Of a DNA stretch of 64,000 bases, positions 8,541 through 50,446 are shown piece by piece. The notes beneath the pieces were generated by a model. That model was not told the origin of the DNA and did not search any database. It saw only the letters and a program-made list of their open reading frames with translations. This stretch comes from Candidatus Moraniibacteriota bacterium (GTDB lineage: Bacteria; Patescibacteriota; Minisyncoccia; Moranbacterales; UBA2206). The first letter of the stretch is position 1, and each line of letters begins with the position of its first letter. The position numbers and the translations under genes were made by a program. Location of the stretch: the NCBI GenBank assembly GCA_026396175.1, contig JAPLXG010000013.1, positions 1,267-65,266 of the forward strand, in the 5' to 3' direction.

Positions 8541-9233
8541 CTACCACCCTTTCTCTTCCAACGCCTTCTCTGCCGCATTTCGTTGCGCTTCTTGTTTGGA
8601 GAGTCCTTCTCCTTTTGCTACCATATCTTCGCCGACATAGGCGCCAACGACAAATTTCTTGTCATGATCCGGCCCCGTTTCATCCAAAACGCGATAAGAC
8701 GGTGTGAGACCGGCTCTTTCTTGCGCTTCTTCTTGGAAACGACTCTTAGCATCAAGATATAATTTTTTCTCAATAATATTGGGCAGCTTAGTCACGACGT
8801 GTTTCAAAATAAACTTTTTGCAGGCATCGTAGCCTTTGGTTTTTTGGTCAAGATAAATTGCTCCGGTAATCGCTTCGAAGGCATTGGCCAGGAGATATTG
8901 TCGCGCTCGTCCCCGATCTTTCGCTTCGCCGCGACTCATCATCAAATATTCTTCCACGCCGATTTCCGTGGAAATTGTGGCGAGCATCTCTCCGTTCACC
9001 AGCGCCGCGCGCCAGTTGGTCATTTCGCCTTCCGGATTATTGGGATAATTATTATAGAGATATTCTGTCACGACCAGCTCAAGAACTGCATCACCCAAAA
9101 ATTCCAAGCGTTCATTGTGCTCCAGCTTATATTCTCGATGCTCGTTTAAATAGGACCGGTGAGTGACGGCTTGTTGCAAAAGATCCAAATTATTAAATTT
9201 TACCCCCACCTTTTTCGCTAATTGCTCAATCAC
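8541..9233 (-). CDS. rnc: Ribonuclease III
   Basis: 230 aa. RNase III signature ERLEFLGDAVLELVVTEY. C-terminal dsRBD ending KGEGLSKQEAQRNAAEKAL. Confidence 0.9.
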   Translation of the reverse strand: MIEQLAKKVGVKFNNLDLLQQAVTHRSYLNEHREYKLEHNERLEFLGDAVLELVVTEYLYNNYPNNPEGEMTNWRAALVNGEMLATISTEIGVEEYLMMSRGEAKDRGRARQYLLANAFEAITGAIYLDQKTKGYDACKKFILKHVVTKLPNIIEKKLYLDAKSRFQEEAQERAGLTPSYRVLDETGPDHDKKFVVGAYVGEDMVAKGEGLSKQEAQRNAAEKALEEKGW

Positions 9234-10361: not shown

Positions 10362-11108
10362 CTATTTTTCTACTGGAACGACGCTGGTTATAACCACATC
10401 CTCCACCGGTCGATCAGGCGTTGTCGTTTTGACATTCTCAATCTTCAGTGCCGTATCCAGTCCACTCACCACCTCACCAAAAACCGTATAATTCGGATCC
10501 AACATCGCTGAAGGATTAGCCGTCACGATGAAAAACTGACTACCATTAGTGTTCGGTCCGGAATTAGCCATCGCAAGTGTCCCTTGCGGATATTTTTCCG
10601 TTCCTGTGAGTTCGTCTTTGAATTTATACCCGGGTCCGCCAGATCCCCAACTGCTCTTCATCGCAGAATTCTTAGAAAGCGGATCTCCAGCTTGAATCAT
10701 AAAACCCTTGATGACGCGATGGAATTTCGTGTTCTCATAAAATTTCAGTTGGGCTAGTTGCAAAAAATTAGTCACGGTCAGTGGCGTGGCTGTACCATTG
10801 AATTTAACCTTAATGTCCCCCAGGCTGGTTTTAATCGTGGCAAAAGGATATTTTTTGATCAAATCCTGACTGATCACTGGCGCTTTTGGTGCATTTGAAC
10901 TCATATTATTTGATTCGTTTAATGAATTATTTAAATTAGCATTTTCCTGATCCGTGGACTTGGCGATACTATCCTGTGCTTTTTTAGGAACGCCAAGTAG
11001 ACCACTCGCCACTCCGGATTTGTCTGCGCTGTTATCGCTAGCGCAACCGGAAAAAAGAATAAGCGCTATAAACAAGCCAGCCACACTAAGAATTTTTTTT
11101 GTTTGCAT
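10362..11108 (-). CDS. Cyclophilin-type peptidyl-prolyl cis-trans isomerase, lipoprotein
   Basis: 248 aa. Lipobox LFSGCASD. Cyclophilin core FHRVIKGFMIQAGDP ... GTLAMANSGPNTNGSQFFI. Confidence 0.85.
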   Translation of the reverse strand: MQTKKILSVAGLFIALILFSGCASDNSADKSGVASGLLGVPKKAQDSIAKSTDQENANLNNSLNESNNMSSNAPKAPVISQDLIKKYPFATIKTSLGDIKVKFNGTATPLTVTNFLQLAQLKFYENTKFHRVIKGFMIQAGDPLSKNSAMKSSWGSGGPGYKFKDELTGTEKYPQGTLAMANSGPNTNGSQFFIVTANPSAMLDPNYTVFGEVVSGLDTALKIENVKTTTPDRPVEDVVITSVVPVEK

Positions 11109-11622: not shown

Positions 11623-12492
11623 CTATTTTGTCGTGGTTAATTCGCAATCACTTTTGACGCTCGCGCAATCATAGACCACATCGCCCTGCTGATCTGTGCG
11701 TAGAATTCTAATCTTATCATCTTGCAAGCGGCTCAAAACTTCTGCGGTCGGGTGTCCATAGCGGTTATCTTTTCCCACCGAAATGACTGCTTCCTTGGGG
11801 TGCACAAGCTCCAGCCATTGCGCGCTCGTGGCAGATTTTGACCCGTGATGAGCAATTTTGAGCACATTGGCGCTCAGAGGCAATCTAGAGCTAATCAACT
11901 GACTATCAGCTTCCAATGGCAAATCTCCCGTGAACAGAAAACTGTTTTCGCCATAAGTTAGCTTTGCCACAATGCTCGCTAAATTAGTATCGTCTTTCAG
12001 CCCGGAAATTATTGCATCGGTCGGACTAAACACTTCCAGTTCCGCGTCATCGGAAAGTTTAACTTTCATCCCGCGCCTCGCAATTTGTTTTTCCACCTTT
12101 TTGTCGGAAATTATTTTTTCCAAAGCGCCAAAAACTTGCGACTCACTCTGCGCTCCGCTTTCAATCACCTGGTCGACAGAATAATTTTTGAGCACGTCAA
12201 CAAGTCCCGTAATGTGATCCGCGTCCGGATGCGTCGCAATTACCACATCAATTTTCCGATCCCAAAACGGCACATATTCGCCCAACTTTTCCATTAGTTT
12301 TGTTCCGCTCGGTCCGCCATCGATGAGAATTTGTTTTTCACCATCAGAAATCAAAATCGCATCCCCTTGCCCCACATCCAAAAACGCCACCTGCAATTTT
12401 TGATTTTGCGCGTGAGAATTCACACCAAAAAAAATCAGTCCAAAAGTCAGAAGGATTCCAAGGGAAAAATAGATTAGTTTTCGGTTTGGCAT
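11623..12492 (-). CDS. ComEC C-terminal metallo-beta-lactamase domain protein (stand-alone)
   Basis: 289 aa. Signal/TM segment, then FLDVGQGDAILI ... IATHPDADHITG ... IAHHGS, the ComEC MBL module. Confidence 0.75.
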   Translation of the reverse strand: MPNRKLIYFSLGILLTFGLIFFGVNSHAQNQKLQVAFLDVGQGDAILISDGEKQILIDGGPSGTKLMEKLGEYVPFWDRKIDVVIATHPDADHITGLVDVLKNYSVDQVIESGAQSESQVFGALEKIISDKKVEKQIARRGMKVKLSDDAELEVFSPTDAIISGLKDDTNLASIVAKLTYGENSFLFTGDLPLEADSQLISSRLPLSANVLKIAHHGSKSATSAQWLELVHPKEAVISVGKDNRYGHPTAEVLSRLQDDKIRILRTDQQGDVVYDCASVKSDCELTTTK

Positions 12493-12520
12493 AAAAAAAT
12501 ATAACGCAAAAAATTTTATT

Positions 12521-12775
12521 TATATCCCCTTCTCCCTCCGGGAGAAGGTGGCTGAAAGCCGGATGAGGGAAAGGGCGTTTGATAAATAACAGCCTAGATT
12601 TGCTTAGATTATTCTTAATATATAGCCCTTGCCCTCACCTGTCATGAGTACATGACATCCCTGCCTACCGGCAGGCAGGCTCTCCCAAGGGGAGAAGAGG
12701 AATTGAAGAGACTATTCCGTAGCCTCACCTGTCCTCCGGACATCCTCTCCCGGAGGGAGAGGAGGATGTTTCATT
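12521..12775. repeat. GC-rich multi-hairpin interspersed element, copy a (about 255 bp)
   Basis: A string of perfect palindromes: CCTTCTCCCTCCGGGAGAAGG, GGCCGAAAGCC, GGATGAGGGAAAGGGCG...GCCCTTGCCCTCACC, GTCATGAGTACATGAC, CCTGCCTACCGGCAGGCAGG, CTCTCCCAAGGGGAGAAG, TGTCCTCCGGACA. Homologous copies lie at 16148, 21711 and 56088. It overlaps the last codons of the comEC ORF. Confidence 0.85.
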
Positions 12776-29786: not shown

Positions 29787-30137
29787 TTATTTCTTCTTTA
29801 AAGATTGCGCGCCTCTTTTGGTCATCTCCTCGGCATAGCCGTCATAGCCTTTTTCTTTGATCATGTTGATGCAAGCCTCTCGGTCGGAACCGAAAATGAA
29901 AGCGAAAAGTTTTGAGATCATATTATTGAATTTTTTACACTCAGACGCCGTTGCATGCACAGTGCAATCCGCGCAACTCAGTTTTCCGCTCTCAATGCAA
30001 CATTTGCGAATTTTGCACCAAGTCGCCTTGGCATTTTTCTGGCAACCCGGGCATTTGCCTTTCAGATACCGTCCGCATTCTCCGCAATACAGTCCGCAAT
30101 AAGCGATTAAATTTTTGTTGGGTGTTTTTTGGTCCAT
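29787..30137 (-). CDS. DUF3795 family Cys-rich protein
   Basis: 116 aa. CGLYCGECGRYLKGKCPGC ... CADC pattern typical of DUF3795. Confidence 0.6.
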   Translation of the reverse strand: MDQKTPNKNLIAYCGLYCGECGRYLKGKCPGCQKNAKATWCKIRKCCIESGKLSCADCTVHATASECKKFNNMISKLFAFIFGSDREACINMIKEKGYDGYAEEMTKRGAQSLKKK

Positions 30138-30150
30138 AGGTTTTTGATTA

Positions 30151-31005
30151 TTATTTCTTCTTTATGTTTATTTTTTTTCTCAAACCGCTCTTTAGTCTTT
30201 TCTTTCGTGCTTTTTCGAGTTCTTTGATATGCCGCTCTGCTTTCAGCTCTTCCGGCATTGTGCCACCAATATCTTTAATTGTATTTCTCACTTTGCGCCC
30301 CACCTCAAAATGCGTTGCATTAGCCGGCTCCTCACCAAAGAGTTCCTCCTTGATAATTTTATCATCCGTTTGAGTGATGCGAAAAAGGTTAGCCGCTAAC
30401 TCCGTCGCTCCCGCCCGATCAAGCACGTCATCTTTGCCGATTTCTTTTTTCTTTTTAATTTCTTCAACCGTCAAACCATACAATCCCAAATAGCCATAAT
30501 TATTAAACTTTCCAAAATTGCTCACGCCTGCTTTCTTGGCTGTATCAAAAAGTTTTTTATTATGTGTTTTTACCTCGCCCCTAATGAATAATCGCTTTTG
30601 ATCTTGGTCAAGCTCTTGAAAAATTTCCTGCTTCCTGGTTTGCACGGCAAAATAGGTTTGCGCCATGGCGATTTCCACCTTTCTTGGGTCACCATTTTGA
30701 GCAATCAGATAACAAGCATAGCGAGAAAGTCGATAGTCTTCAATTTTTCGAAAAGCCTCTTTTTTTGTTCCCCTGGCGATTTTTATCATTTTGTCGGCGC
30801 CGACAAAATGATCTGCCACTTCTTGACTACTTGTACCACAAGCATCTTTTGCCCTTTGGATAGCCCCTTCGAATTTTCTCCATTCCTTATACCCCAAGAG
30901 CGGCATCAATTCTCGCGCTTCCCAATATTCAACGCCATTCTTATCAATTTTTTTGATACTCTCAAAATCCTTATGTAGTCCGGCTAATAATTCTATTTTT
31001 GACAT
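30151..31005 (-). CDS. dinD: DNA-damage-inducible protein D family
   Basis: 284 aa. WEARELMPLLGYKEWRKFEGAIQRAK ... DHFVGADKMIKI ... LSRYACYLIAQNGDP matches DinD closely. Confidence 0.8.
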   Translation of the reverse strand: MSKIELLAGLHKDFESIKKIDKNGVEYWEARELMPLLGYKEWRKFEGAIQRAKDACGTSSQEVADHFVGADKMIKIARGTKKEAFRKIEDYRLSRYACYLIAQNGDPRKVEIAMAQTYFAVQTRKQEIFQELDQDQKRLFIRGEVKTHNKKLFDTAKKAGVSNFGKFNNYGYLGLYGLTVEEIKKKKEIGKDDVLDRAGATELAANLFRITQTDDKIIKEELFGEEPANATHFEVGRKVRNTIKDIGGTMPEELKAERHIKELEKARKKRLKSGLRKKINIKKK

Positions 31006-31070
31006 AATTTTATTTTAGTTTATTATAATGATATTATACCACTATAATAATTCTTGGCAAGTTTTTGCTA

Positions 31071-31358
31071 TTATTTCTTCGGCCAACCCCAATTCCATTT
31101 CGGTTTTTCGCCTTTCTTGTAGGCAATAGCAAAGAGCGCCGTGGTTAGCAAAATTACCAAAACTAGAAAAGTAACTGGCACATCTTTTGGCGCCGACTCG
31201 TCAATTGTTTTTGTCGCCGCAACAAGTAGCGCGACATAGCCCACAATCACCAACCACCCCTGCCATTTGACCGGCGCCCAACCCCAGCCAAACCTTTTTT
31301 GTTTAAACCAAAGACCTTTAGGATTGTCTTTTGCGTATGCCAGGTATCTTTCAAACAT
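31071..31358 (-). CDS. Small two-TM membrane protein
   Basis: 95 aa. Trp-rich termini (WGWAPVKW, WNWGWP). Confidence 0.4.
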   Translation of the reverse strand: MFERYLAYAKDNPKGLWFKQKRFGWGWAPVKWQGWLVIVGYVALLVAATKTIDESAPKDVPVTFLVLVILLTTALFAIAYKKGEKPKWNWGWPKK

Positions 31359-31381
31359 ATTTTTATTTTATATAATTGTTA

Positions 31382-31738
31382 CTAACAAGCCAGATTTTTC
31401 AGATAATCCTTAATTCTTTCACGATCTTCATTTTCTTTATTGCCTTTGTAGTATATTTCAATAAATTCAATGAGTTCGACAGTCTCCGTTTTGAGATGAT
31501 AGGCATAGATCACCCGAAAGAATTTTCCCTTGGTGGAATCACAATGCATCCGCACTTTGTAGATTTCCAATGTGTCATTTTTGTGAAGCAAATTCCAATG
31601 CTTGCTTCCATTTCCCTGGGGCGCCGCAACCAGATATATTTCTTTGAGTTGGCGAAAGTCCTTTTCCAATGTGCGATATTTCTTGGAAAGTTTTTTCAGC
31701 TCTTTAACAAATTCTTGCGTTTGTTGAAAATTTATCAT
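31382..31738 (-). CDS. Putative toxin, RelE/ParE superfamily-like, partner of the Panacea-domain antitoxin
   Basis: 118 aa. Starts 17 nt downstream of the antitoxin gene on the same strand. The C-terminal half (KVRMHCDSTKGKFFRVIYAYHLKTETVELIEFIEI) is RelE/ParE-like. Confidence 0.5.
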   Translation of the reverse strand: MINFQQTQEFVKELKKLSKKYRTLEKDFRQLKEIYLVAAPQGNGSKHWNLLHKNDTLEIYKVRMHCDSTKGKFFRVIYAYHLKTETVELIEFIEIYYKGNKENEDRERIKDYLKNLAC

Positions 31739-31754
31739 CCGGATTTTGGCTTAC

Positions 31755-32549
31755 TTAGAGTTTATCATATTCCCGAACTGACAATTTTTCATCCCGATAG
31801 AACACGCCATTATATTCCACTCGCTCCCCCATCTTGGCCGCTCGCCAAGGCATGTCTTCATGAGAAAGTTCCGACAGTTCTTTGGCAGTCTTGTCCGCTA
31901 GTCTTCGCAGTTCCCAATCAATATGTTTGATTTCTTGCGCGGTGAGTGGCGTCAAATCAACTTGATAGTCAGGATTCAAGAAATATTTCTTCTGCTCCCG
32001 ATCATAGAATTTAGATTTCACTTCCTCAATTTCATTCTTAGCTTTCATTTCTTCCACAATCTTGGCAAACATTACTGGAGTTGGACCAAAATGATTTTTG
32101 ATATACACCGCTCCCATCAACTGCTCCTCAAATTTTTCATAGTAATCAAAATCGATAAAATAGAGCAGTTTATAGATTGCGGTCATACCGATATTAGGTT
32201 TGCCCCCAACTTTTTTGAGAATATATGTTAGGACAGTCTTGAATTTTTTCTGATTCTTGATCGGCACAGAAATCCTAACCTCGTTTTCAGCTTTCTTCTC
32301 TTTCTTAATGTCTGCTTTTTCCAAGACAACTTCTTTTTCCATCACTGCAGTATCCGACAAAAATTCCACGAGTGTCATGCCAAAAATTTCCGCCAGCAGT
32401 CCCGCTTCGGTCACGGTGATGTCCCGCTCACCTTTTTCGATTTGCATATAGGTGGGACGAGAAAGGCTTAATTTCTTGGCTAAATAGTCCTGAGAATAAT
32501 CCTGCTTCAATCGAAGATTTTTGATTTTCTCGGCTAGTTTCTTAGGCAT
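31755..32549 (-). CDS. HTH (XRE) plus Panacea/DUF4065 domain antitoxin (PanA-like)
   Basis: 264 aa. N-terminal HTH LAKKLSLSRPTYMQIEKGER. C-terminal IGMTAIYKLLYFIDFDYYEKFEEQLMGAVYIKNHFGPTP is characteristic of DUF4065/SocA. Confidence 0.7.
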   Translation of the reverse strand: MPKKLAEKIKNLRLKQDYSQDYLAKKLSLSRPTYMQIEKGERDITVTEAGLLAEIFGMTLVEFLSDTAVMEKEVVLEKADIKKEKKAENEVRISVPIKNQKKFKTVLTYILKKVGGKPNIGMTAIYKLLYFIDFDYYEKFEEQLMGAVYIKNHFGPTPVMFAKIVEEMKAKNEIEEVKSKFYDREQKKYFLNPDYQVDLTPLTAQEIKHIDWELRRLADKTAKELSELSHEDMPWRAAKMGERVEYNGVFYRDEKLSVREYDKL

Positions 32550-32794
32550 AGTTTTATCATTTTTGATTATATTAAAAGCTTACCTCAAGAAATAGTTATT
32601 GTCAAGTATTTTGACACCATATAGTGCTAGGTTATTTGACATCTTTTCTATCCCGTCTGCTCCCCACAAAAGCCCCATGCAAAATCGATTGCTCCGGCCG
32701 ATTAGCCAGCATAACCCCGAAATCCCCCTCCCCATCCCAATCCATGAGGAGAGAAAGTAGTTTTGGGTGGTTTATTTTTTTGTATAAAAAGTTA

Positions 32795-33523
32795 TTACTC
32801 GATGTTTTTTATGTAATGACAATTTGGATAATTGGAACAGCCATAAAAACTTTCTCCGACATGAGAACCTTTGCGCGCAGTTTTCAAAACTAAGTTACCA
32901 CCACACTTGGGACATTTTTCAGCAACGCTAGATCCAAAGACTGGACGGTTAGAGATAGTCTTGTCCAATCCGGCCAATTTCACATATTCCATCAATTTTT
33001 TTCCATCAATCAATTCAATTGGTTTTCCTATCGCGAAATTTTCCGCTTCAAGTGTGAAAACATTGGTCGTGATGAAAAAAGATTTTGCGTCAGAAAGTTT
33101 GTTCACAACGGCACCATAGAAATCGCGCATCGCTCCGACAGAAACTTGCTGGGTGATGAATTTTTTGCATTGGATGTAGTGCTTCACTCCCCCTTTCGTA
33201 GCAATAACATCAATTCCGCCGTCATTCGGACCACCAACTGCTTCAGTTGCATAACCTAATTTATCAAAAAGATGACAAATAAACGCTTCGAACTGAGTTG
33301 GAGCCAAGTTTTTTATCGCCTCCAGTGAATTCTTACTCTCAAAAAAGCTCATTTTCTTTCGCTTCTTGTATAAAACATAAATGACTATAGGCAAAAATAA
33401 AGCCACAAACATAATAGACGCCCCTAAGGCTGTATTTTTAAATAGCACCGGCAAAAACTTTATAAACACAATGAGCGCATACAAGACGAATACCATCTCG
33501 CCTACTGATTGTTTTTTAGCCAT
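32795..33523 (-). CDS. Membrane-anchored Mrr-like restriction endonuclease domain protein with C-terminal topoisomerase-type zinc ribbon
   Basis: 242 aa. Two N-terminal TM helices. Mrr_cat core GGPNDGGIDVIA ... QCKK. C-terminal CPKCGG...CSNYPNCHY. Confidence 0.7.
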   Translation of the reverse strand: MAKKQSVGEMVFVLYALIVFIKFLPVLFKNTALGASIMFVALFLPIVIYVLYKKRKKMSFFESKNSLEAIKNLAPTQFEAFICHLFDKLGYATEAVGGPNDGGIDVIATKGGVKHYIQCKKFITQQVSVGAMRDFYGAVVNKLSDAKSFFITTNVFTLEAENFAIGKPIELIDGKKLMEYVKLAGLDKTISNRPVFGSSVAEKCPKCGGNLVLKTARKGSHVGESFYGCSNYPNCHYIKNIE

Positions 33524-33603
33524 TTTTTGTGTATGTAATTAATTACGTAATTAAAAAATTATTTCTGAAACACGAGCAGATATTCGTGCATTGAACGTAC
33601 AAT

Positions 33604-33777
33604 TATTCATCTTTCACTATCTTCATCTTCATCGCAGTCTTCGGATAAATCCTCAAGTAGCCAATCTCTACCACAAGCACAATTTTCTCGATATGAATAT
33701 TGATATTGACCACCGATAAGTTTTAGGTAAAGTTCATTTCCACATTTGCATTTTATTATTATTCGTCGATTTTTCAT
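33604..33777 (-). CDS. Small zinc-ribbon protein (57 aa)
   Basis: MKNRRIIIKCKCGNELYLKLIGGQYQYSYRENCACGRDWLLEDLSEDCDEDEDSER. CxC...CxC. Read by hand. Confidence 0.3.
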
Positions 33778-33781
33778 AAAT

Positions 33782-34210
33782 TTATTTATAGCGCCTTACC
33801 AATTCCAAACAATCTTCAAAAGCATCTGCCTTACCACCAACAAATTCGTTAAGCCCGTATTCTTCAATTTTCTCACTTTCCCAAAGTTCTTCTTTCCAAG
33901 CCTTTCGATAATTTCTTGCCAAAATTGCTATATGTTTTTCTAGCGATTCTCCGGTGATTTTTTCCAAAAATCCCTTCGCCATCAGCTCAACCGTTTTTGC
34001 ATATAAGTTTTGCAGATTTTCCCATAACTCAAATGTTTGATATTTTTTATTAGAGCTAATTAATTTCCACTCATTTGGTTCGATGTCTAAAAAATCGTCG
34101 CCCTTTTCCTCTGCGTATTCTTTGCACATTATCCGAAATGGAAAATAGAACTTTTTGTGCTTATTGAGATATTTTAGTATTTTGATAGCAAGCTCTCTGG
34201 AGATTTTCAT
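33782..34210 (-). CDS. Hypothetical protein
   Basis: 142 aa, helical and charged. No motif recognised. Confidence 0.4.
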   Translation of the reverse strand: MKISRELAIKILKYLNKHKKFYFPFRIMCKEYAEEKGDDFLDIEPNEWKLISSNKKYQTFELWENLQNLYAKTVELMAKGFLEKITGESLEKHIAILARNYRKAWKEELWESEKIEEYGLNEFVGGKADAFEDCLELVRRYK

Positions 34211-34270
34211 AAAATTGAACAGAAATTAATTTTTATTTCTGATCAATTCTTGATCGTTTTGGAAATTATG

Positions 34271-35059
34271 TCAAATCGCTAATTTATAGCGACCACGCGA
34301 AACAAATTCCAAATATCCTTTGTCTCGTAAAACCTGTAATTGCTGGCGTAATTTGTCTTTGATGAAGTTGTTTTCTGGATGTTTTTCTTTCAGTTCTTTT
34401 TCAAAGGCATAAACCTCATCCAGCGAAAATTCTCTCTTTCCGATCTTATCTATGCAACTCATTGTATCCAAAATCCAACCCTTAGAAGCAAGCTCTTTCT
34501 CCTCCCGCAAAAATAAAGTTTTTTGCCAATTTTCCAAAACCTCTTTTTTGGTTTCTACTTTTCCGTTTTTTATATAAAATATTTTTCCAGTTTGAGGAAT
34601 ACTTGAAAGAGAAATATTGCATCCAACCCAGCCGGCACGTCTAGCCATTTCTGAAAGTGGTTTTCTTTTCTCGATAATGTCTGGAACAAAAAAATGCTTA
34701 GGAATAACGAGAAAGTTTCGAACTTCAAAATTTTTCAAATCGTAATTAAGAAAAAAGAAGTTGGGATTATTATTACTTTGCAACCTCTCAATCATTGTCC
34801 GATAAGCACCATCAACAATTTTATTTCCCATCGAATCTTTCTTGCTTTTAAGCTCATATTCCTCTTTACAATCATCGCAATAAAAATCAGCAACTGGCCT
34901 ATTATTTTCAAAGTGATTTATAGGACAACCGCAAGCTGGACAAAAGATTTCATTACCAACCCATCCTTCACTCATTGCCTTGATTTTCTGTGACGAGCTA
35001 TTATATTTTTCCGCTAATTTTACATCAAAAATAATCTGCATGAATTTTACTTTCTCCAA
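34271..35059 (-). CDS. DpnI-family (Dam-replacing family) methylation-dependent restriction endonuclease
   Basis: 262 aa. Collinear with DpnI: CPACGCPINHFENNRPVADFYCDDCKEE, NNPNFFFL, RKPLSEMARRAGWVGCNI, IRQQLQVLRDKGYLEF (C-terminal winged helix). Confidence 0.8.
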   Translation of the reverse strand: MEKVKFMQIIFDVKLAEKYNSSSQKIKAMSEGWVGNEIFCPACGCPINHFENNRPVADFYCDDCKEEYELKSKKDSMGNKIVDGAYRTMIERLQSNNNPNFFFLNYDLKNFEVRNFLVIPKHFFVPDIIEKRKPLSEMARRAGWVGCNISLSSIPQTGKIFYIKNGKVETKKEVLENWQKTLFLREEKELASKGWILDTMSCIDKIGKREFSLDEVYAFEKELKEKHPENNFIKDKLRQQLQVLRDKGYLEFVSRGRYKLAI

Positions 35060-35087
35060 TTACTAATTACCAACCCACTCTCCCACA

Positions 35088-35195
35088 AACCCTCCCTGTT
35101 AAATCGTATTTAACAGGGTAAATCCAACTCCTCAAAAACCCCATCGGTGAAATTGGCTGGTTTGAATCCAAAAATCGCCTTCGCGTTTTTGCTTC
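35088..35195. repeat. Hairpin CCCTGTTAAAT-cgt-ATTTAACAGGG plus a 70-bp element repeated downstream of three adjacent island genes
   Basis: caactcctcaaaaaccccatcggtgaaattggctggtttgaatccaaaaatcgccttcgc recurs at 36755-36825 with about 85% identity. The hairpin recurs at 47897-47935. Confidence 0.7.
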
Positions 35196-35202
35196 TTGCG
35201 AC

Positions 35203-36648
35203 CTACATCAAAAAATAATAATCCAATGGCACAGATACTATATTTTCTTGCATATCCAGTTTTAGTTCAGCGCCAGAAAAAATGATTCCGTAGTCAGACT
35301 TGATTTTACGCATCGTTCCCATCACTTGTTTTTTATCTTTATTTCCAAGGCCAACTTCTATGACAATTTTTTTGGAATTTCCGATTTGTAATATAAAATC
35401 CGCTCCTCCCTGAGCACTGTCATAGCGGATAACTCCATCGCCTCGCAGAATAAACTCTCGATAGAGATGCGCGCCTATCGAATCTTCCAGTAGTTTTCCT
35501 TGCCTTGTTGAATAAGTGCCTTCATTTCCGGAAAAATAAAAAAATGACATTCTTATCGCCGGGCTCATAAATAAATACTTATTGGCTTTATTGGCAATCG
35601 TCATGTTAGAACCATGTGGTGGAATCTTCACTAAAAGCTCAGCTTTCTCCAAAACATCAAAAATATTTGCCAGAGTTAGGCGACTGATGTTGAATTTATT
35701 TGCCAGCGTAGTTAAGCTTGTGATATCATTTTCTGCAATTGCAAAAAGAATTCTTTTCACTGCGCCAAGTGTGTCTTGATCAAAACTTCCAAGAGTCGGC
35801 ATGTCTTGCTTGATAATTTTTTCAAGCAAAAGCGATATATTATTATAAATTGAAATCTCATCCGGCATTATTTGCGCAAAAGGAAATGTTCCATAGGATA
35901 AATATTTTTTAATGTCATGCCTGTCTATCTTTGACCAGTAACTATTAACCAGGCCAGATAACTCAGTTAAATTATTATGAACCTCCTGGGCCGTTTTGGA
36001 AAAATAAATCGCCTGTCTTATTTTATTTTTCAATCCAGTGGTCGGATAGATTTTACTTTTTATCATCTGGTATTCGCCAAAGCACATCGGCGTCATTGGT
36101 TCAAAAATAGCTCTTCTGGCAATATTGGGCGTTGATTGCAAAACAATCGCTGAAGACCCTGTAACGCAGAAAAAAACATTGTTCGTTCTCTCAAATAACG
36201 ATTTCAATGCGATCGCCCATTTTGGATCAGTTTGCACCTCATCAAGAAATATTATTATCGGTTTTTTCAGACTTTCCAAATACTCGCCGATAATCTTTTC
36301 GTAAGCTGAAACTATTTCATTAATACCCACATCAAAATAGTTCCGCAGATCTTCCACCGAAAGAAAAAAAACTTGCACATCTTTTCCCTTAAATTCTGAA
36401 CATATTTGTGCCATGAGAGTTGTTTTTCCCACGCCCCGAAAGCCTGGAACGATAACCAGCCTATTTGAAGATTTTTTATCCAGAAAATCATTAATATATT
36501 TTTTTAATTTTATGTACAAAAAACGCTTGGGGTGCCTCTCTCCATTCGGACCATGCGTAAAATGCACCAACCGATCATCCGTGGTCAAAATCTGCTTTTG
36601 CAAATATTGGATTAATTCCTGATTCATGTATATTTTGCTATACAACAA
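35203..36648 (-). CDS. AAA+ ATPase (AAA_14 plus DUF4143, COG1373 type)
   Basis: 481 aa. Walker A GFRGVGKTTL. Walker B IIFLDEVQ. C-terminal DUF4143-like region. Confidence 0.75.
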   Translation of the reverse strand: MLYSKIYMNQELIQYLQKQILTTDDRLVHFTHGPNGERHPKRFLYIKLKKYINDFLDKKSSNRLVIVPGFRGVGKTTLMAQICSEFKGKDVQVFFLSVEDLRNYFDVGINEIVSAYEKIIGEYLESLKKPIIIFLDEVQTDPKWAIALKSLFERTNNVFFCVTGSSAIVLQSTPNIARRAIFEPMTPMCFGEYQMIKSKIYPTTGLKNKIRQAIYFSKTAQEVHNNLTELSGLVNSYWSKIDRHDIKKYLSYGTFPFAQIMPDEISIYNNISLLLEKIIKQDMPTLGSFDQDTLGAVKRILFAIAENDITSLTTLANKFNISRLTLANIFDVLEKAELLVKIPPHGSNMTIANKANKYLFMSPAIRMSFFYFSGNEGTYSTRQGKLLEDSIGAHLYREFILRGDGVIRYDSAQGGADFILQIGNSKKIVIEVGLGNKDKKQVMGTMRKIKSDYGIIFSGAELKLDMQENIVSVPLDYYFLM

Positions 36649-36754
36649 TTATACGTTTGTAGTATAGTATACTATTCAATAAATGTCAAATGCTAGTTTT
36701 TAGGCTTTAATTAGGCTTATTTCACAGCAATCTCTTGCTAAATATCCTCAACTC

Positions 36755-36825
36755 CTCAAAAACCCCATCGGTGAAATTGTCTGATTTGAATTTGAAAATC
36801 GCCTTCGCTTTAGTAGAAATTATTT
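36755..36825. repeat. Second copy of the 70-bp 3' element, plus the ccatattttacgtcttt motif shared with 38375-38395
   Basis: caactcctcaaaaaccccatcggtgaaattgtctgatttgaatttgaaaatcgccttcgc. Confidence 0.7.
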
Positions 36826-36852
36826 TAATACTCCCAAAAACCTATCCATATT

Positions 36853-38247
36853 TTACGTCTTTTTGGCTATTCTTACCAGCTTATCCTTTTCAACCAAAAC
36901 AATATTCTTTCTTTTTTTCGCCAACTTTTTCATATCTAGCGTAAAACCGCTCTTGCTGAATAATATAAACTGCTCCTTTCGACTTGCATTGTTCCAATCA
37001 ACATTTCTGGCCTTATTTTCAAGCTCAACAAAAATATTTGTCCCCACTTGCCTATTTGACCATTTTACTTCGCCAAAAATAATTTCCTTCGTTTCTTGAT
37101 TGAATCCAACAATATCAATCTCATTGCTATCATTCCACCATCTGCCGACATATTGAAAGTTATTCCCCATATTCCGCTGCGCCCATTCGCCAGCGATTTC
37201 CTCATAATTTCTACTAACCAATTCTGCAATATTACTTTTGATAATTTTCACAACTTCGCCCTGACTTCCCTCCTCGATCAATTGCTTATTGCGGAAAATG
37301 AAACGAAACCAAAACTCGAAAAAATTATCCGAAATACGATAAAACCCTTTGCGACTTTTTTCGGGAATTTTTTCAGTGATAGAAATTTCTTTTTGCACAA
37401 TCAATAATTGTTGCAAGACCGCAAGATAGGAAGAAATTGTCGCTTTGTCAAAGCCGGTATAATTCATTACTTCCGATGCCTTTCTTTTTCCAAGAGATAG
37501 TCCGAGCAAAATGGAAAAATAGTTTCTTGGCTCTCTAAATTCTTCTCTTAAGAGAAAATCGACCTCTTCATACATAAACTGTTCTTTTGAGAGCATTGTG
37601 CTTTCCATTACTTTCCAAAAATTTTTCCTACCTAAAAAATTCTTTAAGTAGGTGATTGTTCCGCCAACAACCGAATAAATCATCAATCTTTCCTCAAAAC
37701 TTTTTTTCGGAAAAATATCTTCAAGTTCAAAAAAAGAAAACGGGCGAACTAGAATTTGCCCGGATCTCCTACCATATAGTGGCGCACCATATATTAGAGT
37801 GTGCTTTTCCATCATGCCAATACTTGAACCGCACAAGATGAGATAGACCGGAGACTTGCTCAGATATAGGTCCCAGCCTTTTTGAAAAACTGATGGAATT
37901 GCCGGATCCGCATCCACCAGATAGGGAAATTCATCAATGATGATAACTATTTTTTGTTTTTTTTGCGCAATGTATCTAAATAACTGCTCCCAATCTTGGA
38001 AGCCATATTCTGACACATAGGCATCCTTAAAAAATACGCCTACCTCTTGCGATATTTTTTGTAATTGCAATTTCGGATCTAGACGTTCGGCTAGGTGAAA
38101 GATAGTCGGCTTATTTTTAGCAAATTCTAAACTTAGGGCTGTTTTCCCCACCCTTCTTTTTCCATACATAATAACCAAATGACTGCCCTTTTCCTTCCAC
38201 CAGTCATTAAGCGCTTTTAGCTCCGATTTTCTGTTATAAAACTTCAT
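36853..38247 (-). CDS. ATPase (Arch_ATPase/PF01637 plus DUF234, COG1672 type)
   Basis: 464 aa. Walker A YGKRRVGKTAL. Walker B VIIIDEFPYL. C-terminal DUF234-like part. Confidence 0.75.
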   Translation of the reverse strand: MKFYNRKSELKALNDWWKEKGSHLVIMYGKRRVGKTALSLEFAKNKPTIFHLAERLDPKLQLQKISQEVGVFFKDAYVSEYGFQDWEQLFRYIAQKKQKIVIIIDEFPYLVDADPAIPSVFQKGWDLYLSKSPVYLILCGSSIGMMEKHTLIYGAPLYGRRSGQILVRPFSFFELEDIFPKKSFEERLMIYSVVGGTITYLKNFLGRKNFWKVMESTMLSKEQFMYEEVDFLLREEFREPRNYFSILLGLSLGKRKASEVMNYTGFDKATISSYLAVLQQLLIVQKEISITEKIPEKSRKGFYRISDNFFEFWFRFIFRNKQLIEEGSQGEVVKIIKSNIAELVSRNYEEIAGEWAQRNMGNNFQYVGRWWNDSNEIDIVGFNQETKEIIFGEVKWSNRQVGTNIFVELENKARNVDWNNASRKEQFILFSKSGFTLDMKKLAKKRKNIVLVEKDKLVRIAKKT

Positions 38248-38411
38248 TTTAGTATAATTTAGATTAGTATAATTTAGATTATACTAAATATTTTACTCCT
38301 TCCCTGCAAATTGTCAAGGACTTGTATCATTAATACAGTTATTTTCTCAAGCTACCAAAAACCCTCTCAACTCCATTTTACGTCTTTGATTTTATTAAAA
38401 AGTCAGCCAAT

Positions 38412-39326
38412 TCACTCGTGCTGAAAAACTTTCCCTTGACTTCCCAGTTCGTCAACCGCTGCGAAAATTAAATCCGTTATCCATTTATTCTTTTCAAGAT
38501 TTTTGGATTTAGCTAAATTATCTTTCACCCAAGCTAATGCTTCCTCATGAGAAAAGCCCCTGCGTTCTTTAGCCGCTTCATATTGATCTAGGACGATCAA
38601 AACCCGACGCTCGAGGGCATCGACATAATTCTCCAAGATTCCGATAGTCCTGGTTTCATGCGAAGTTTTGTCCTTTTCGTTTAATTCATAGGGATCAATG
38701 TCATGATCAATGTGATGCGAACCGGCGATGATCCTGGTGTTCTCACTCAAACCTTGCGGATACTTTTCCAAAATATCATGCGTCCAATAGGCGTGCTTAT
38801 CCCAAAATTGCTGCATCGTAGTTTTTCCGCCAATTCCATATTTTTCCAACATACGCTGGGCAGATTCGAGTTCGCCCGTCTCAAAAAGTTCTCTAATCTC
38901 TTCTGTCACTAATAATTTGGTGTCACGGATATTTTCATGGGCAAATATTTTTATGATCATCTCCTGCTCCTGCGGAGTCGCTTCGGCCGGGCCGGATTTT
39001 CCGATATCGTGCAAAATAGCTGCCCTAAGCACCTCGAGACGCTGTTCGTCAGAGTGACGCAATTCCGGATATTGTTCAGAGTAACGCTCTTTCAAAAGAT
39101 TAAACACATTCCCGATCCCCTGCTTAATCTTCCGCGAATATTCATTAAATCGTGACCCTTTTTCAATCCGGATCATCCGATCAATCACATCTTCATGCAA
39201 CACTTCGCAACAACCAACCCGCTCCAGGCTAGCGAGCACGTTTTTGCGATCAGTCTCGTCTTTCCACTCCTGCTCACTGGTTTCTTCCATTGTTTCTGGT
39301 GTTTCAAACATTTTTTTGATTGGCAT
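38412..39326 (-). CDS. HD domain phosphohydrolase
   Basis: 304 aa. AILHDIGK (His-Asp doublet) and IIAGSHHIDHDIDP. Confidence 0.65.
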   Translation of the reverse strand: MPIKKMFETPETMEETSEQEWKDETDRKNVLASLERVGCCEVLHEDVIDRMIRIEKGSRFNEYSRKIKQGIGNVFNLLKERYSEQYPELRHSDEQRLEVLRAAILHDIGKSGPAEATPQEQEMIIKIFAHENIRDTKLLVTEEIRELFETGELESAQRMLEKYGIGGKTTMQQFWDKHAYWTHDILEKYPQGLSENTRIIAGSHHIDHDIDPYELNEKDKTSHETRTIGILENYVDALERRVLIVLDQYEAAKERRGFSHEEALAWVKDNLAKSKNLEKNKWITDLIFAAVDELGSQGKVFQHE

Positions 39327-39399
39327 CAGGCCTTAGATACTTATACCTCGAAATTGTTTTCCTCTTCCATCCTACCCCAAATCCATGCTTTCGTAAACC

Positions 39400-39470
39400 C
39401 TGGCGCCTTGAGTAAGTTTAATTTTCCCAAGGGCATATTTTGACAAAATTAAGGCGCCAGGGTAAAGAAA
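39400..39470. promoter_or_regulatory. Perfect 12-bp inverted repeat CCCTGGCGCCTT (47 nt) AAGGCGCCAGGG just upstream of the HD gene
   Basis: Lies between the terminator of the upstream gene and the HD gene start. Candidate operator. Confidence 0.35.
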
Positions 39471-39499
39471 AAAGGGGTTATCCATAATGCGGATAACCC
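39463..39499 (-). terminator. Intrinsic terminator (minus strand): 10-bp stem GGGGTTATCC/GGATAACCCC followed by TTTTTTCTTT
   Basis: Perfect stem with a 7-nt loop. U-tract on the minus strand. Confidence 0.6.
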
Positions 39500-39532
39500 C
39501 CTTGTTAAAACAATGTTCGAACCAGTTATGTT

Positions 39533-42422: not shown

Positions 42423-42517
42423 TGGTGGCACCACCTGGACTTGAACCAGGAATCCTTCCGCCTAAGCCAGAGTGCTCGTAGCCTTACGAAATGCTCTACC
42501 GATTGAGCCATGGCGCC
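42423..42517 (-). tRNA. tRNA-like gene with encoded CCA and a greatly expanded anticodon region (identity undetermined)
   Basis: Acceptor GGCGCCA/TGGTGCC. D arm GCTC-AATCGGTA-GAGC. T arm CCTGG-TTCAAGT-CCAGG. The anticodon stem (TTTCG/CGGAA) would enclose 26 nt instead of 7. Confidence 0.45.
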
Positions 42518-42539
42518 ACAATAAACTTAAACTTTAGGT

Positions 42540-42625
42540 TGGAACTATCGAATGGATTTGAACCATTGCCCTGCTGGATTTTTTGGTTAATTGCCAGCCG
42601 CTCTACCAAGCTGAGCTACGATAGC
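42540..42625 (-). tRNA. tRNA-like gene with encoded CCA and a 16-nt anticodon loop (identity undetermined)
   Basis: Acceptor GCTATCG/CGATAGT. D arm GCTC-AGCTTGGTA-GAGC. Anticodon stem GCTGG/CCAGC enclosing CAATTAACCAAAAAAT. Variable loop AGGGC. T arm AATGG-TTCAAAT-CCATT. Confidence 0.5.
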
Positions 42626-43627: not shown

Positions 43628-44506
43628 TTAATGCTCAATGCCAATTTTCCAAACACCTTTTTCTAAGAAAGCTTCGATGGTTTGACGAGTCGCCTTGTTA
43701 ATCAGACTTGAATGTGAAAACTTGTTACTTTTGGCATATTCAACTAGAGTAATAATTTTTTTACCTTCTAGATATGCCAACCGCTTATGATAACTATTAG
43801 TCAAAGCTTTGCCCACTATTTCCTCCATAACATCAGTTGCGCCTTTCGCATCAAAATCTCGAAACGCTTCGTAGTATTTTTGCCGATCAATAAATTTTAT
43901 ATTTATTGGCACAAACCCTTCCCTGATTAGCAAATAATTATTAACGGCCCGTCCGATTCGGCCATTGCCATCACAAAATGGATGCGTATGCTCAAAAGCC
44001 AGATGCAATCTTGCTATGCGCTTAATAATATTTTCATGACTCTGAGCATTATATTCGGACAGCATTTTTTCCAAACGCTCTATGACCTCTTTCGGATTGG
44101 GCGCGATATGACTACCCACACGCACAAACTCATTTTCCGCTCTAAATCTTCCGGCGATATCATCACGAATATTGCTCAGGAGCATTTCGTGCAACGTTAA
44201 AATCACAGGAAGCGTCAGCTCTTGCTCTTTAGCCTTTTTGTCAATATACGAAACAACTCGTGCCAAATTCTTAGCTTCAAAAATTTCTCGCTCGCTAATG
44301 AAGCGATCCAAATCAATTTGCAAAAGTATCTTTTCCGTTTCTTCAAGCGTAAGCGTGCTATTTTCAATAGCATTGGAATTATAGACTTGCTCAGCCACTT
44401 CCGCCTCGGAAATAAGTTGAATAAGCGCTTCTTTCCCCGTGGAAGCTTTATAATACCGCTCGCGCAACGAGCTTATTTTATTGTACGCATTGAGTGTTTT
44501 TGTCAT
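43628..44506 (-). CDS. Fic family protein
   Basis: 292 aa. HPFCDGNGRIGR Fic motif. Confidence 0.8.
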   Translation of the reverse strand: MTKTLNAYNKISSLRERYYKASTGKEALIQLISEAEVAEQVYNSNAIENSTLTLEETEKILLQIDLDRFISEREIFEAKNLARVVSYIDKKAKEQELTLPVILTLHEMLLSNIRDDIAGRFRAENEFVRVGSHIAPNPKEVIERLEKMLSEYNAQSHENIIKRIARLHLAFEHTHPFCDGNGRIGRAVNNYLLIREGFVPINIKFIDRQKYYEAFRDFDAKGATDVMEEIVGKALTNSYHKRLAYLEGKKIITLVEYAKSNKFSHSSLINKATRQTIEAFLEKGVWKIGIEH

Positions 44507-46636: not shown

Positions 46637-47695
46637 TTATCCAAAATAATTTTCCACCGCAAACTCAAACTGTTTCAAAAACAGTTCTTTGAAATATGAG
46701 ATATTATTCTGCTCATAAAATAATAACGTCGCCTTTTTGTATTCACCTTCATCCATACTGCGATAAGAGAGAGGGCAAGAATTAAATGATTGCAAAATAG
46801 CGTTGCCACCCAAACGACGGGTACGCTTGTTGCCATCAACGAACGGCTGGATATAGGCGACGAGTAGCATCAGGATAATTGCTTTCTCAAAAACATCCTT
46901 GGTCTCGTTCACCAACTTGCAAGTTTTTTCCAAGGCCTCTTTTATCTGAAACTCATTGTCTAGCGGTTTGTAATTTGTGCCAGTTATTCCCACCAGAGTT
47001 TTTCTCAAGTTTTTTGTCACATTCAATCCATCCACCAGCAGAGAATGAATATTTTCTATCTTCGACACAGATATGGATTGAAACTCATTTTTATTGCTTC
47101 CGATATAATCCAAGGTCTTTTTATGATTGAGAATCATAACCGCTTCTTCCTTGGAATGACCTTCGGCTTCTTGTTGGTTTTTAATTAATTGCTCGGTTTC
47201 AAGAAGGCTATAGGTATTGCCCTCAATTTTTGACGATTTCCAACTGAAATCGATATTTAACCGCTCTATCTCTTTTTTTAATGCATCAGCTGGAATATCT
47301 TTTATCTTATCTTGATAAACTCCATTCAGCTCAGAGAGTTTCTTTCTTTCAGCATCAGTAAAAATATTTTTCAGTTGGTTGAAAATATCAAAATTAAACT
47401 TTTTGTTAATTTTCCTCTGGTCAAGATCTTGGGCAAAATATTTTTCAACATCAATCTTTTTTATAATCGGATATCTAGAAGAAAGTTGATAGCTAACAGC
47501 TCGCCCAGCTGTTCCTTGTCTTTCTAGCAAATTAAGTTCCAGCATTTTTTCCAAATCTCGGGAAATAGTCATTCTAGTCACCTGGCCCAATTCCTTGCCA
47601 ATATGCTCAACTATTTGACCCACAGAAACATGCTCTTTTTCTTCGACAAGAGAGAGAATAATTTCTTGCCTGCTGTTTAATTTTTCAGTTTTCAT
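46637..47695 (-). CDS. Fic family protein with N-terminal winged-HTH (DeoR-like)
   Basis: 352 aa. N-terminal HTH. Fic motif QPFVDGNKRTRR. Confidence 0.8.
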   Translation of the reverse strand: MKTEKLNSRQEIILSLVEEKEHVSVGQIVEHIGKELGQVTRMTISRDLEKMLELNLLERQGTAGRAVSYQLSSRYPIIKKIDVEKYFAQDLDQRKINKKFNFDIFNQLKNIFTDAERKKLSELNGVYQDKIKDIPADALKKEIERLNIDFSWKSSKIEGNTYSLLETEQLIKNQQEAEGHSKEEAVMILNHKKTLDYIGSNKNEFQSISVSKIENIHSLLVDGLNVTKNLRKTLVGITGTNYKPLDNEFQIKEALEKTCKLVNETKDVFEKAIILMLLVAYIQPFVDGNKRTRRLGGNAILQSFNSCPLSYRSMDEGEYKKATLLFYEQNNISYFKELFLKQFEFAVENYFG

Positions 47696-48194: not shown

Positions 48195-50124
<1,930 letters not shown>

Positions 50125-50446
50125 AAAAATATCAGAAGTAAACCCCTTCACCCACAAACTTGCGCCTGCGAGATATTAGGGTTTACCCCTCAGCCCGCTA
50201 GCTCTGTACTTGCGTACGAAAGTATCGTGGGTGTGGGGTAAATCTGATTATATAAAAGAAAATAAATTCTTTTTTATTTACTATGCCTCCGAAGAGTAAT
50301 AGTAAATATTTGAAATAGACTCGAATTTCTTCGTCACGCCATAGCTCCGAAGAGCGACGGCGGATATAGTCTTGATTTTACTCAAGACACGGACTAATCG
50401 CAAAAAATTGCGATTTCGTCCAAATCTCTGATTTGGTAACGAAATC

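Follow-up and report, generated by a model that had tools for sequence, protein, structure and literature searches.

Two families of single-gene defence candidates, PDC-S01 and PDC-S27, consist of an ATPase fused to a PD-(D/E)XK domain; both are very abundant, with validation pending (PMC12988326; bioRxiv 10.1101/2024.01.29.577857), and PDC-S01 has been ranked fourth by frequency among prokaryotic 'defences' (PMC12988326). Antitoxins that join a helix-turn-helix (HTH) domain to Panacea and have mRNA-interferase or ParE-like toxin partners are a described combination (the PanAT systems of Kurata et al., PMC8832971). Bacteria of the candidate phyla radiation (CPR) mostly have no CRISPR, and a reliance on restriction-modification (R-M)-type defence and on DNA uptake has been reported for them (PMC12455944). 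Here we describe a stretch of DNA from a metagenome-assembled genome of Candidatus Moranbacteria (CPR/Patescibacteria), positions 29787-39500 of a 64-kb window (the window being the whole piece of DNA that was analysed), that carries a PDC-S01-type and a PDC-S27-type ATPase side by side, together with a PanA-type antitoxin and its putative toxin, a DpnI homologue and other accessory genes. The stretch is very probably a mosaic accessory/defence island built of at least six independently transcribed units that are not arranged as operons.

The open reading frames (ORFs) of the stretch were searched against Pfam, NCBIfam, PADLOC and PHROG profiles. A preliminary description of this DNA had called the region an accessory/defence island and listed its genes. 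All of the listed ORFs were found in place and their domain calls were confirmed by Pfam, NCBIfam and PADLOC, although two further ORFs had been left out of the list (one of 95 residues at 31071-31358 and one of 142 residues at 33782-34210). The designation as an island holds as well: six genes match PADLOC models, the G+C content drops to 0.33-0.37 at 33-38 kb as compared with about 0.41 over the window, and a related genome has the same backbone with other cargo (see below). Both flanks consist of housekeeping genes: NrdD/NrdG/NrdR at one end, TauE, tRNAs and 16S rRNA at the opposite end. According to the ORF listing, every ORF of the stretch is on the minus strand. The main features are as follows.

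30151-31005, minus strand: DinD family protein with a Bro-N N-terminus (NF008573 at 333 bits, cutoff 242)
31382-31738, minus strand: predicted RelE/HigB-fold toxin of 118 residues (AlphaFold model and Foldseek)
31755-32549, minus strand: HTH_3 and SocA_Panacea (DUF4065) antitoxin of the PanA type (PF13274 E=5e-16, PF01381 E=2e-12)
32795-33523, minus strand: Mrr_cat nuclease with a C-terminal Zn_ribbon_Top1 (PF04471 87 bits, PF01396 55.5 bits)
33607-33777, minus strand: orf56, zinc-ribbon-like (CxC...CxC), downstream of DpnI
33782-34210, minus strand: orf142, downstream of DpnI
34271-35059, minus strand: DpnI homologue, DpnI and DpnI_C domains (PF06044 274 bits, PF17726 112 bits)
35203-36697, minus strand: AAA_14 and DUF4143 ATPase (ORF 35203-36648) with its promoter/operator (AAA_14 85 bits)
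36853-38317, minus strand: ATPase_2 and DUF234 ATPase (ORF 36853-38247) with its promoter and operator-like repeats (90 and 75 bits)
38412-39326, minus strand: HD phosphohydrolase (Pfam HD), probable start at 39311

As we read the stretch, the six units would be a DinD/PDC-S13-type gene, a PanA antitoxin with a RelE-fold toxin, a membrane-anchored Mrr_cat nuclease, a DpnI-type endonuclease with two small ORFs, a DUF4143 AAA+ ATPase with a PD-(D/E)XK-like domain (PDC-S01) and a DUF234 ATPase-nuclease (PDC-S27). For each of them we infer an anti-phage function. The two ATPases match the catalogued candidates directly: the DUF4143 protein matches the PDC-S01 model (PDLC04787, E=5e-29, residues 45-475) and the DUF234 protein the PDC-S27 model (PDLC04984, E=1.4e-37). 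The AAA_14-DUF4143 and ATPase_2-DUF234 architectures are also those of the candidates, each in a single gene. The DUF234 protein has the canonical nuclease motif D..EVK. In the DUF4143 subfamily of the window (35203-36627, C-terminal domain), by contrast, the motif reads D..EVG(L)G(N/K)K in place of the D..EVK of a more typical DUF4143 protein (locus L007, 462-1808), and the catalytic lysine could have moved or disappeared.

The units are taken to be independent because they have their own promoters and upstream elements that are conserved across unrelated loci. Strong sigma-70-like promoters precede the DUF234, DUF4143 and DinD genes; that of DinD (TTGCCA-16-TATAAT) lies at 31060-31033. The DUF4143 promoter (TTGACA-17-TATACT, in 36628-36697) is overlapped by three 10-bp boxes, CTTGTATAGT, TATACTACAA and TTGTAGTATA, and about 65 nt of upstream sequence including these boxes are conserved in 33 loci from unrelated contexts. 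Boxes 2 and 3 form an inverted repeat (10-12 bp) that is kept via C:G to G:C swaps in 8 sequences, with a covariation score of 0.104 as compared with 0.057±0.011 after shuffling (0/500). Since one arm overlaps the -10 box, we read the boxes as DNA operators. The DUF234 promoter (TTGACA-16-TAAAAT, in 38248-38317) is followed, up to the ATG, by TAGTATAATCTAAATTATACTAATCTAAATTATACTAAA, which is conserved upstream of DUF234 homologues in 5/5 other contexts. Tandem/palindromic operator-like repeats, TAGTATAAT..ATTATACTA, reach the DUF234 start codon and occur in five other genomic contexts. Both ATPases contain winged HTH domains, and autoregulation through these domains is plausible. In the literature searched, no description was found of such promoter/operator cassettes, or of the flanking repeats reported below, for PDC-S01 or PDC-S27; the cassette and repeat observations are the only part of this analysis that might be new.

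The preliminary description had drawn attention to unusually long gaps between the HD and DUF234 genes (164 nt) and between the DUF234 and DUF4143 genes (204 nt), and had suggested that the three genes could form a defence module, to be checked by the conservation of their neighbourhood in relatives. The gap sizes are correct (the second becomes 225 nt if DUF4143 begins at the conserved ATG at 36627), and much of their length is accounted for by the conserved promoter and operator-like repeats that each ATPase carries. The co-occurrence of the three genes, however, was not seen in relatives. A metagenome scan gave 48 loci with close DUF4143 relatives (49-89% amino acid identity). Among these, 32 loci extend at least 2 kb upstream, and none of the 32 contained a DUF234 or HD homologue; in a few DUF4143 loci, a Panacea antitoxin or an Mrr-like or DinD-like gene was close by. 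The DUF234 family is large (> 7,900 matches at E<1e-30, with 53-57% identity across phyla), and its closest members are found in five unrelated contexts: between thioredoxin and NAD synthase (87% identity), within a type I R-M locus (83%), amid glycosyltransferases (76%), next to MsrA (75%) and between two distant DUF4143-domain ATPases (70%; locus L072, 3595-8327, which is the same as L073). The HD gene was present in none of these five contexts, and the trio arrangement was found in neither the five DUF234 nor the five HD contexts. The trio is a chance neighbourhood and not a conserved system.

To see how the stretch as a whole compares, we used a related Parcubacteria-group genome, of which two loci (L003 and L064) cover about 38 kb of one 224-kb contig. 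The same neighbourhood is found there, with amino acid identities of 81% for TauE, 62% for HD, 36% for the 152-residue ORF, 61% for DUF4143, 88% for the Mrr-like protein, 92% for the antitoxin, 87% for the toxin and 74% for the 95-residue ORF. The gene order is rearranged between the two. The slot that holds DpnI, orf142 and orf56 in the window holds MazE, MazG, an SLFN-type helicase, a TIR-like gene, 8xMP and two unknowns in the relative, and the DinD slot holds RhuM/Fic and KilA-N. DpnI, orf142, orf56 and DinD are absent from the relative's locus, and DUF234 is absent from the ~38 kb of contig. We thus have a cluster of defence-type genes whose content differs between related genomes, and because a stable backbone carries exchangeable slots, the stretch is a defence island and not a core locus. 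The DinD promoter and 5' leader (window 30991-31061) are 85% identical to L064 10466-10541, which drives an unrelated RhuM/Fic gene; one promoter has different cargo in the two genomes, apparently exchanged at the start codon. DinD and HD were also considered as syntenic anchors of the variable region; this was rejected, since the Bro-N gene downstream of HD in L003 is unlike the window's DinD.

The DUF4143 gene is bracketed by two copies of a gene fragment.

35125-35187, minus strand: relic a, 63-nt fragment of an HD_4 3' end, directly downstream of DUF4143
36749-36811, minus strand: relic b, second copy of the HD_4 3' end, between DUF234 and DUF4143

The two relics form a direct repeat of 90% identity and are the only two copies in the 64 kb. 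Relic a translates as ..AIFGFKPANFTDGVFEEL, and both encode ..AIF(K/G)FK..NFTDGVFEEL. They correspond to the last ~22 codons of an HD_4 gene that is intact in the relative (L003, 16885-17394; tblastn identity 82% for relic a and 80% for relic b, residues 144-163); there is no intact HD_4 gene in the window. In the relative, the same relic is located right after DUF4143 (L064, 3316-3384), and L003 has a third, 17-nt remnant. We considered the 63-nt repeat as a part of a mobile DUF4143 cassette, and rejected this. Because the repeat is absent from all of the 48 metagenome loci and matches the end of a gene resident in the relative, it is the target sequence and not the cassette.

We then asked how often DUF4143 genes have repeats of this kind, counting same-orientation repeats of at least 20 nt on either side of a gene and using the other ORFs of at least 250 residues in the same loci as controls. 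Such repeats flank 11/30 DUF4143 genes as compared with 5/254 other ORFs (odds ratio 29, Fisher p=9e-9); the loci had been chosen through DUF4143. The flanked genes are those of L023, L024, L027, L028, L030, L031, L032, L039/L042 (one and the same locus), L045, L048 and L059. The repeats are 20-272 nt long with 77-100% identity and differ in every locus; some occur more than twice in a locus and could be dispersed elements. Accessory genes also make up the five other flanked ORFs (one RhuM-like, one LexA-like, one encoding a secreted nuclease, one unknown, and the PanA-RelE pair of L064), and in L072 a 45-nt repeat flanks the DUF234 cassette. In both L045 and L059, further copies of the repeat lie between consecutive genes, as in a cassette array, and the first copy in L059 is the 3' end of an 816-residue gene. 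A further observation concerns the sequence after the DUF4143 stop codon, where L023, L027, L028, L059 and the window (35185-35202) have a fragment, MNE(S/A)ET..EYIDPK.., that resembles an HsdR_N start and was probably taken along from a former neighbour.

Att-site tandem accretion, integron cassette arrays and Campbell-type insertion-duplication all invite comparison with this pattern. The likeness is that cassettes are parted by copies of the 3' end of an anchor gene (the window with L003, L045, L059). The difference is that no integrase was seen here and that the repeats are locus-specific, 20-272 nt long and often diverged. The island would have been assembled by serial insertion or replacement of cassettes through recombination at repeated flanks. 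A wider proposal, which we put forward only tentatively and regard as rather doubtful, is that accessory/defence genes in these CPR genomes are acquired as promoter-operator-gene cassettes that accrete at locus-specific repeats, in an integrase-free, integron-like hotspot; its chief examples would be the highly abundant PDC-S01 (DUF4143) and PDC-S27 (DUF234) ATPases. In such arrays, each cassette would be parted from the next by a locus-specific repeat copy derived from the end of an anchor gene, here the HD_4 3' end. Either homologous (Campbell-type) recombination of excised circles or some cassette-encoded activity could drive the process. CPR bacteria have been reported to retain genes for homologous recombination and competence (PMC12455944).

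Several other explanations of the locus have to be weighed against that of a mosaic of independent units. If the DUF234, DUF4143 and HD genes were one three-gene defence system, the gaps between them would contain internal regulatory sites. The three genes are indeed adjacent and on the same strand, both ATPases match PADLOC candidates, the HD protein has a weak PADLOC Cas3-HD match (E=6e-5), and one further locus has DUF234 beside DUF4143-domain ATPases. We nevertheless consider such a system very improbable: the trio is reproduced in 0/32, 0/5 and 0/5 contexts, promoter and operator are private to each ATPase and travel with its gene, a gene-fragment relic parts the two ATPases, and the fold of the HD protein is nearest to HD-GYP, not Cas3. 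Even less credible is a vertically inherited core genome in which syntenic housekeeping genes have defence-like domains, which the preliminary description had named as the finding that would speak against an island. DUF4143, the Mrr-like gene, PanA-RelE, the 95-residue ORF and HD do recur in the relative's neighbourhood at 61-92% identity, but their order is rearranged, the slots between them hold different defence-type cargo, and DpnI, orf142, orf56, DUF234 and DinD are missing from the relative's locus. The low G+C content and the close ATPase homologues in unrelated contexts and phyla also disagree with a core locus.

More serious, though still unlikely in our judgement, is the view that the ATPase genes are selfish mobile cassettes of promoter, operator and gene which do not serve host defence, the island being partly a junkyard. 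Equally unlikely is its corollary, that their presence in defence islands and R-M loci marks places where insertion is harmless. A near-identical cassette architecture in many unrelated contexts, the excess of direct repeats at DUF4143 genes (11/30 as compared with 5/254), the carriage of fragments of former neighbours such as the HsdR_N-like start, and the very large numbers of homologues, many on short contigs, would all fit mobile elements, and the PDC status of these families rests on embedding only. On the other hand, neither a transposase/integrase signature nor conserved terminal repeats of the cassette were found, and several repeats have more than two copies per locus. Repeat length varies between 20 and 272 nt and similar repeats flank the RhuM-like, LexA-like, SNase and PanA-RelE genes, which argues for general host recombination and not for a cassette-encoded process. 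Mobility and defence can, moreover, go together. Some observations weigh against the mosaic of independent defence units itself. The nuclease activity of the DUF4143 protein is uncertain because the canonical position of the catalytic lysine is absent in its subfamily, and PDC-S01, PDC-S27, PDC-S13 and the Mrr-like gene are predicted defence candidates only. L072/L073 has the order DUF4143 (409 residues), DUF234, a small reverse ORF and DUF4143 (426 residues), which points to a possible functional affinity of the two ATPase types, although these DUF4143 proteins are only ~23% identical to that of the window, the order is reversed and the HD gene is absent. A DUF4143 gene lies within 10 kb of HD, not adjacent to it, in 2/5 HD contexts, and many of the comparison loci are short metagenome contigs.

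With the mosaic island as the preferred reading, what little is known of CPR immunity is extended by an enzyme of the DpnI type, a PanA-RelE pair and two ATPases from the catalogue of candidates, and dropping the trio avoids the pursuit of a non-existent module. PDC-S01 behaves here like a self-contained cassette whose operator is conserved and which duplicated target sequence often brackets, and the cassette and its duplicated target offer testable handles on the regulation and spread of such genes. If the tentative proposal of cassette accretion at locus-specific repeats is correct, the guilt-by-embedding signal for the PDC-S01 and PDC-S27 ATPases could partly reflect insertion behaviour and not function.

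The DpnI homologue is 53% identical to DpnI of S. pneumoniae over 251 positions, end to end (PDB 4ESJ, E=1e-90; see also 4KYW), and both domains are covered in full length (PF06044 1-182/183, PF17726 2-69/70). The catalytic D..ExK (PVAD, ELK) and the four zinc-binding cysteines (both CxxC pairs) are conserved, and PADLOC identifies the protein as mREase_II (E=7e-120). Its probable start is the ATG at 35041. Judged by these matches, the protein is a member of the type IIM methyl-directed restriction endonuclease family. It would be expected to recognise methylated GATC, G(m6A)TC, and an endonuclease of the DpnI type would cut incoming GATC-methylated DNA. Active DpnI would be incompatible with Dam methylation by the host. 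The amino-methyltransferase motif [DNS]PP[YFW] was found in no ORF of at least 150 residues within the 64-kb window, and GATC is only mildly depleted (198 sites in the window, observed/expected 0.75). The homologue differs from S. pneumoniae DpnI in being exchangeable island cargo in a CPR genome, followed by two unrelated small ORFs; there was no Pfam match to DpnD. Neither orf142 nor orf56 matched Pfam, PADLOC, NCBIfam or PHROG. The small conserved family of orf142 comprises 113 representative clusters and has no PDB or Pfam match even by profile. As cargo, both small ORFs share the variable slot of DpnI. Scans of viral contigs with DpnI, orf142 and DUF234 gave no relatives, so that a phage-borne origin of the cargo is unsupported.

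The preliminary description had counted two methylation-directed nucleases in this region, the second being the Mrr-like protein. This stands for DpnI, which is full length with intact motifs, but not for the Mrr-like protein, which has no reader domain of the Mrr_N type. The Mrr_cat model was matched at positions 1-113/115, so the PD-(D/E)XK core is common to the window protein and to E. coli Mrr and other type IV enzymes, and PADLOC gave PDC-S02 and ZorD-nuclease-like matches. Before residue 70 there was no Pfam match, and thus no Mrr_N-type modified-DNA reader domain was detected. Residues 1-69 are hydrophobic and, judged from the translation, form two hydrophobic helices. Based on these features the protein is a predicted membrane-anchored Mrr_cat nuclease, which differs from the type IV enzymes by its transmembrane helices, its topoisomerase-type zinc ribbon and the lack of an N-terminal reader. 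Since that modified-DNA-binding domain is lacking, methyl dependence of the Mrr-like protein is not implied, and only DpnI supports methyl-directed restriction.

The 118-residue ORF next to the Panacea antitoxin (identical to NCBI NTY33_03945) had been called a RelE/ParE-like toxin, which its predicted fold bears out. There was no Pfam or PDB sequence match with either the single sequence or a 39-sequence profile. The AlphaFold model (pLDDT, or predicted local distance difference test, 82.5) has the topology E-H-H-E-E-E-E-H, as in the RelE-type fold, where a pair of N-terminal helices packs on an antiparallel beta-sheet, and the best Foldseek match was RelE (1wmi, E=2e-4, probability 1.0), followed by HigB2, YafQ and HigB1. 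Homologues of the protein carry the JGI names RelE/YafQ. At the level of the modelled fold, the protein is a RelE/HigB-like toxin. The antitoxin is directly upstream of the toxin in both the window and L064, and the pair is kept with antitoxin/toxin identities of 92%/87% in L064 and 50%/29% in L043. As in the PanAT systems, an HTH-Panacea antitoxin adjoins a small putative toxin in a conserved pair; the difference is that the window toxin is too diverged for a Pfam or PDB sequence match and is recognised by its predicted fold only. The pair could act as a translation-arresting toxin-antitoxin or abortive-infection unit. In L064, the pair is flanked by a 77-nt direct repeat (8963-9039 and 10376-10452) that encodes a small ORF, MNHSKLLSLLAQWDGEEEF... 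The window has only the upstream copy of this repeat, at ~32699-32775, in a degenerate form whose ATG is lost.

The DinD (DNA-damage-inducible protein D) protein is a full-length match to an equivalog-level hidden Markov model and is the equivalent of PADLOC PDC-S13 (PDLC04919, E=4.6e-105). Two smaller ORFs lie at this end of the stretch.

29787-30137, minus strand: cysteine-rich DUF3795 ORF of 116 residues (PF12675 22.7 bits against a cutoff of 22.6, marginal)
31071-31358, minus strand: hydrophobic ORF of 95 residues, predicted membrane protein as judged from the translation

The DUF3795 ORF is the outermost gene, carries no defence annotation and had no PHROG match. The 95-residue ORF had no family match in Pfam, PADLOC, NCBIfam or PHROG; its homologue in L064 is at 12455-12742 (74% identity).

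At the other end, the HD protein (identical to NCBI NTY33_03980) belongs to a family of 275 homologues, and its metal-ligand set H..HD..H..HH..D is invariant in 34 aligned homologues. The only confident fold match of the AlphaFold model (pLDDT 87) was HD-GYP 4r8z of PA4781, and this match is weak (probability 0.95-0.97, E ~0.2-0.5). Neighbourhoods of the HD gene were sampled via exact-protein look-ups in five genomes. The neighbours were MatE, PLD, a cation ATPase, a cupin, ABC-F and an aminotransferase, and an ATPase adjacent to HD was found in 0/5 genomes. A profile scan of genome contigs with the HD alignment had at least three distant loci among the matches listed. The HD gene is best treated as a resident, solitary, CPR-wide phosphohydrolase that is next to the island by chance and is no part of a defence module. 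Two elements lie upstream of it.

39399-39461, minus strand: single-copy inverted-repeat element of 63 nt (arms of 11-13 nt), in the HD promoter region
39503-39471, minus strand: terminator hairpin with a T-run, belonging to the upstream 152-residue gene

These had been described as the HD gene's own operator and terminator. The inverted repeat is real, but the orthologous HD promoters of L003, L005 and L007 do not have it, and the idea of a conserved HD operator was dropped for this reason. Compared with L005, it looks like a 63-68-bp insertion flanked by a TTTAC duplication and resembles a miniature inverted-repeat transposable element. The terminator is assigned to the 152-residue gene because it is conserved after the homologue of that gene in L003.

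Beyond the stretch, an Rfam scan of the window gave three observations. The 16S rRNA gene at 48196-50129 is 1,934 nt long as compared with 1,533 positions in the model, corresponding to an insertion of ~400 nt. No match to 23S rRNA was reported anywhere in the window. At 42423-42625 there are two adjoining long tRNAs (83 and 92 nt) with implausible anticodons according to ARAGORN; they are probably class II or insertion-bearing tRNAs. Between the tRNAs and the 16S gene, two Fic/DOC-domain genes (43628-44506 and 46637-47695, one of them with an N-terminal HTH) are found among hydrolase, MBL and NUDIX genes.

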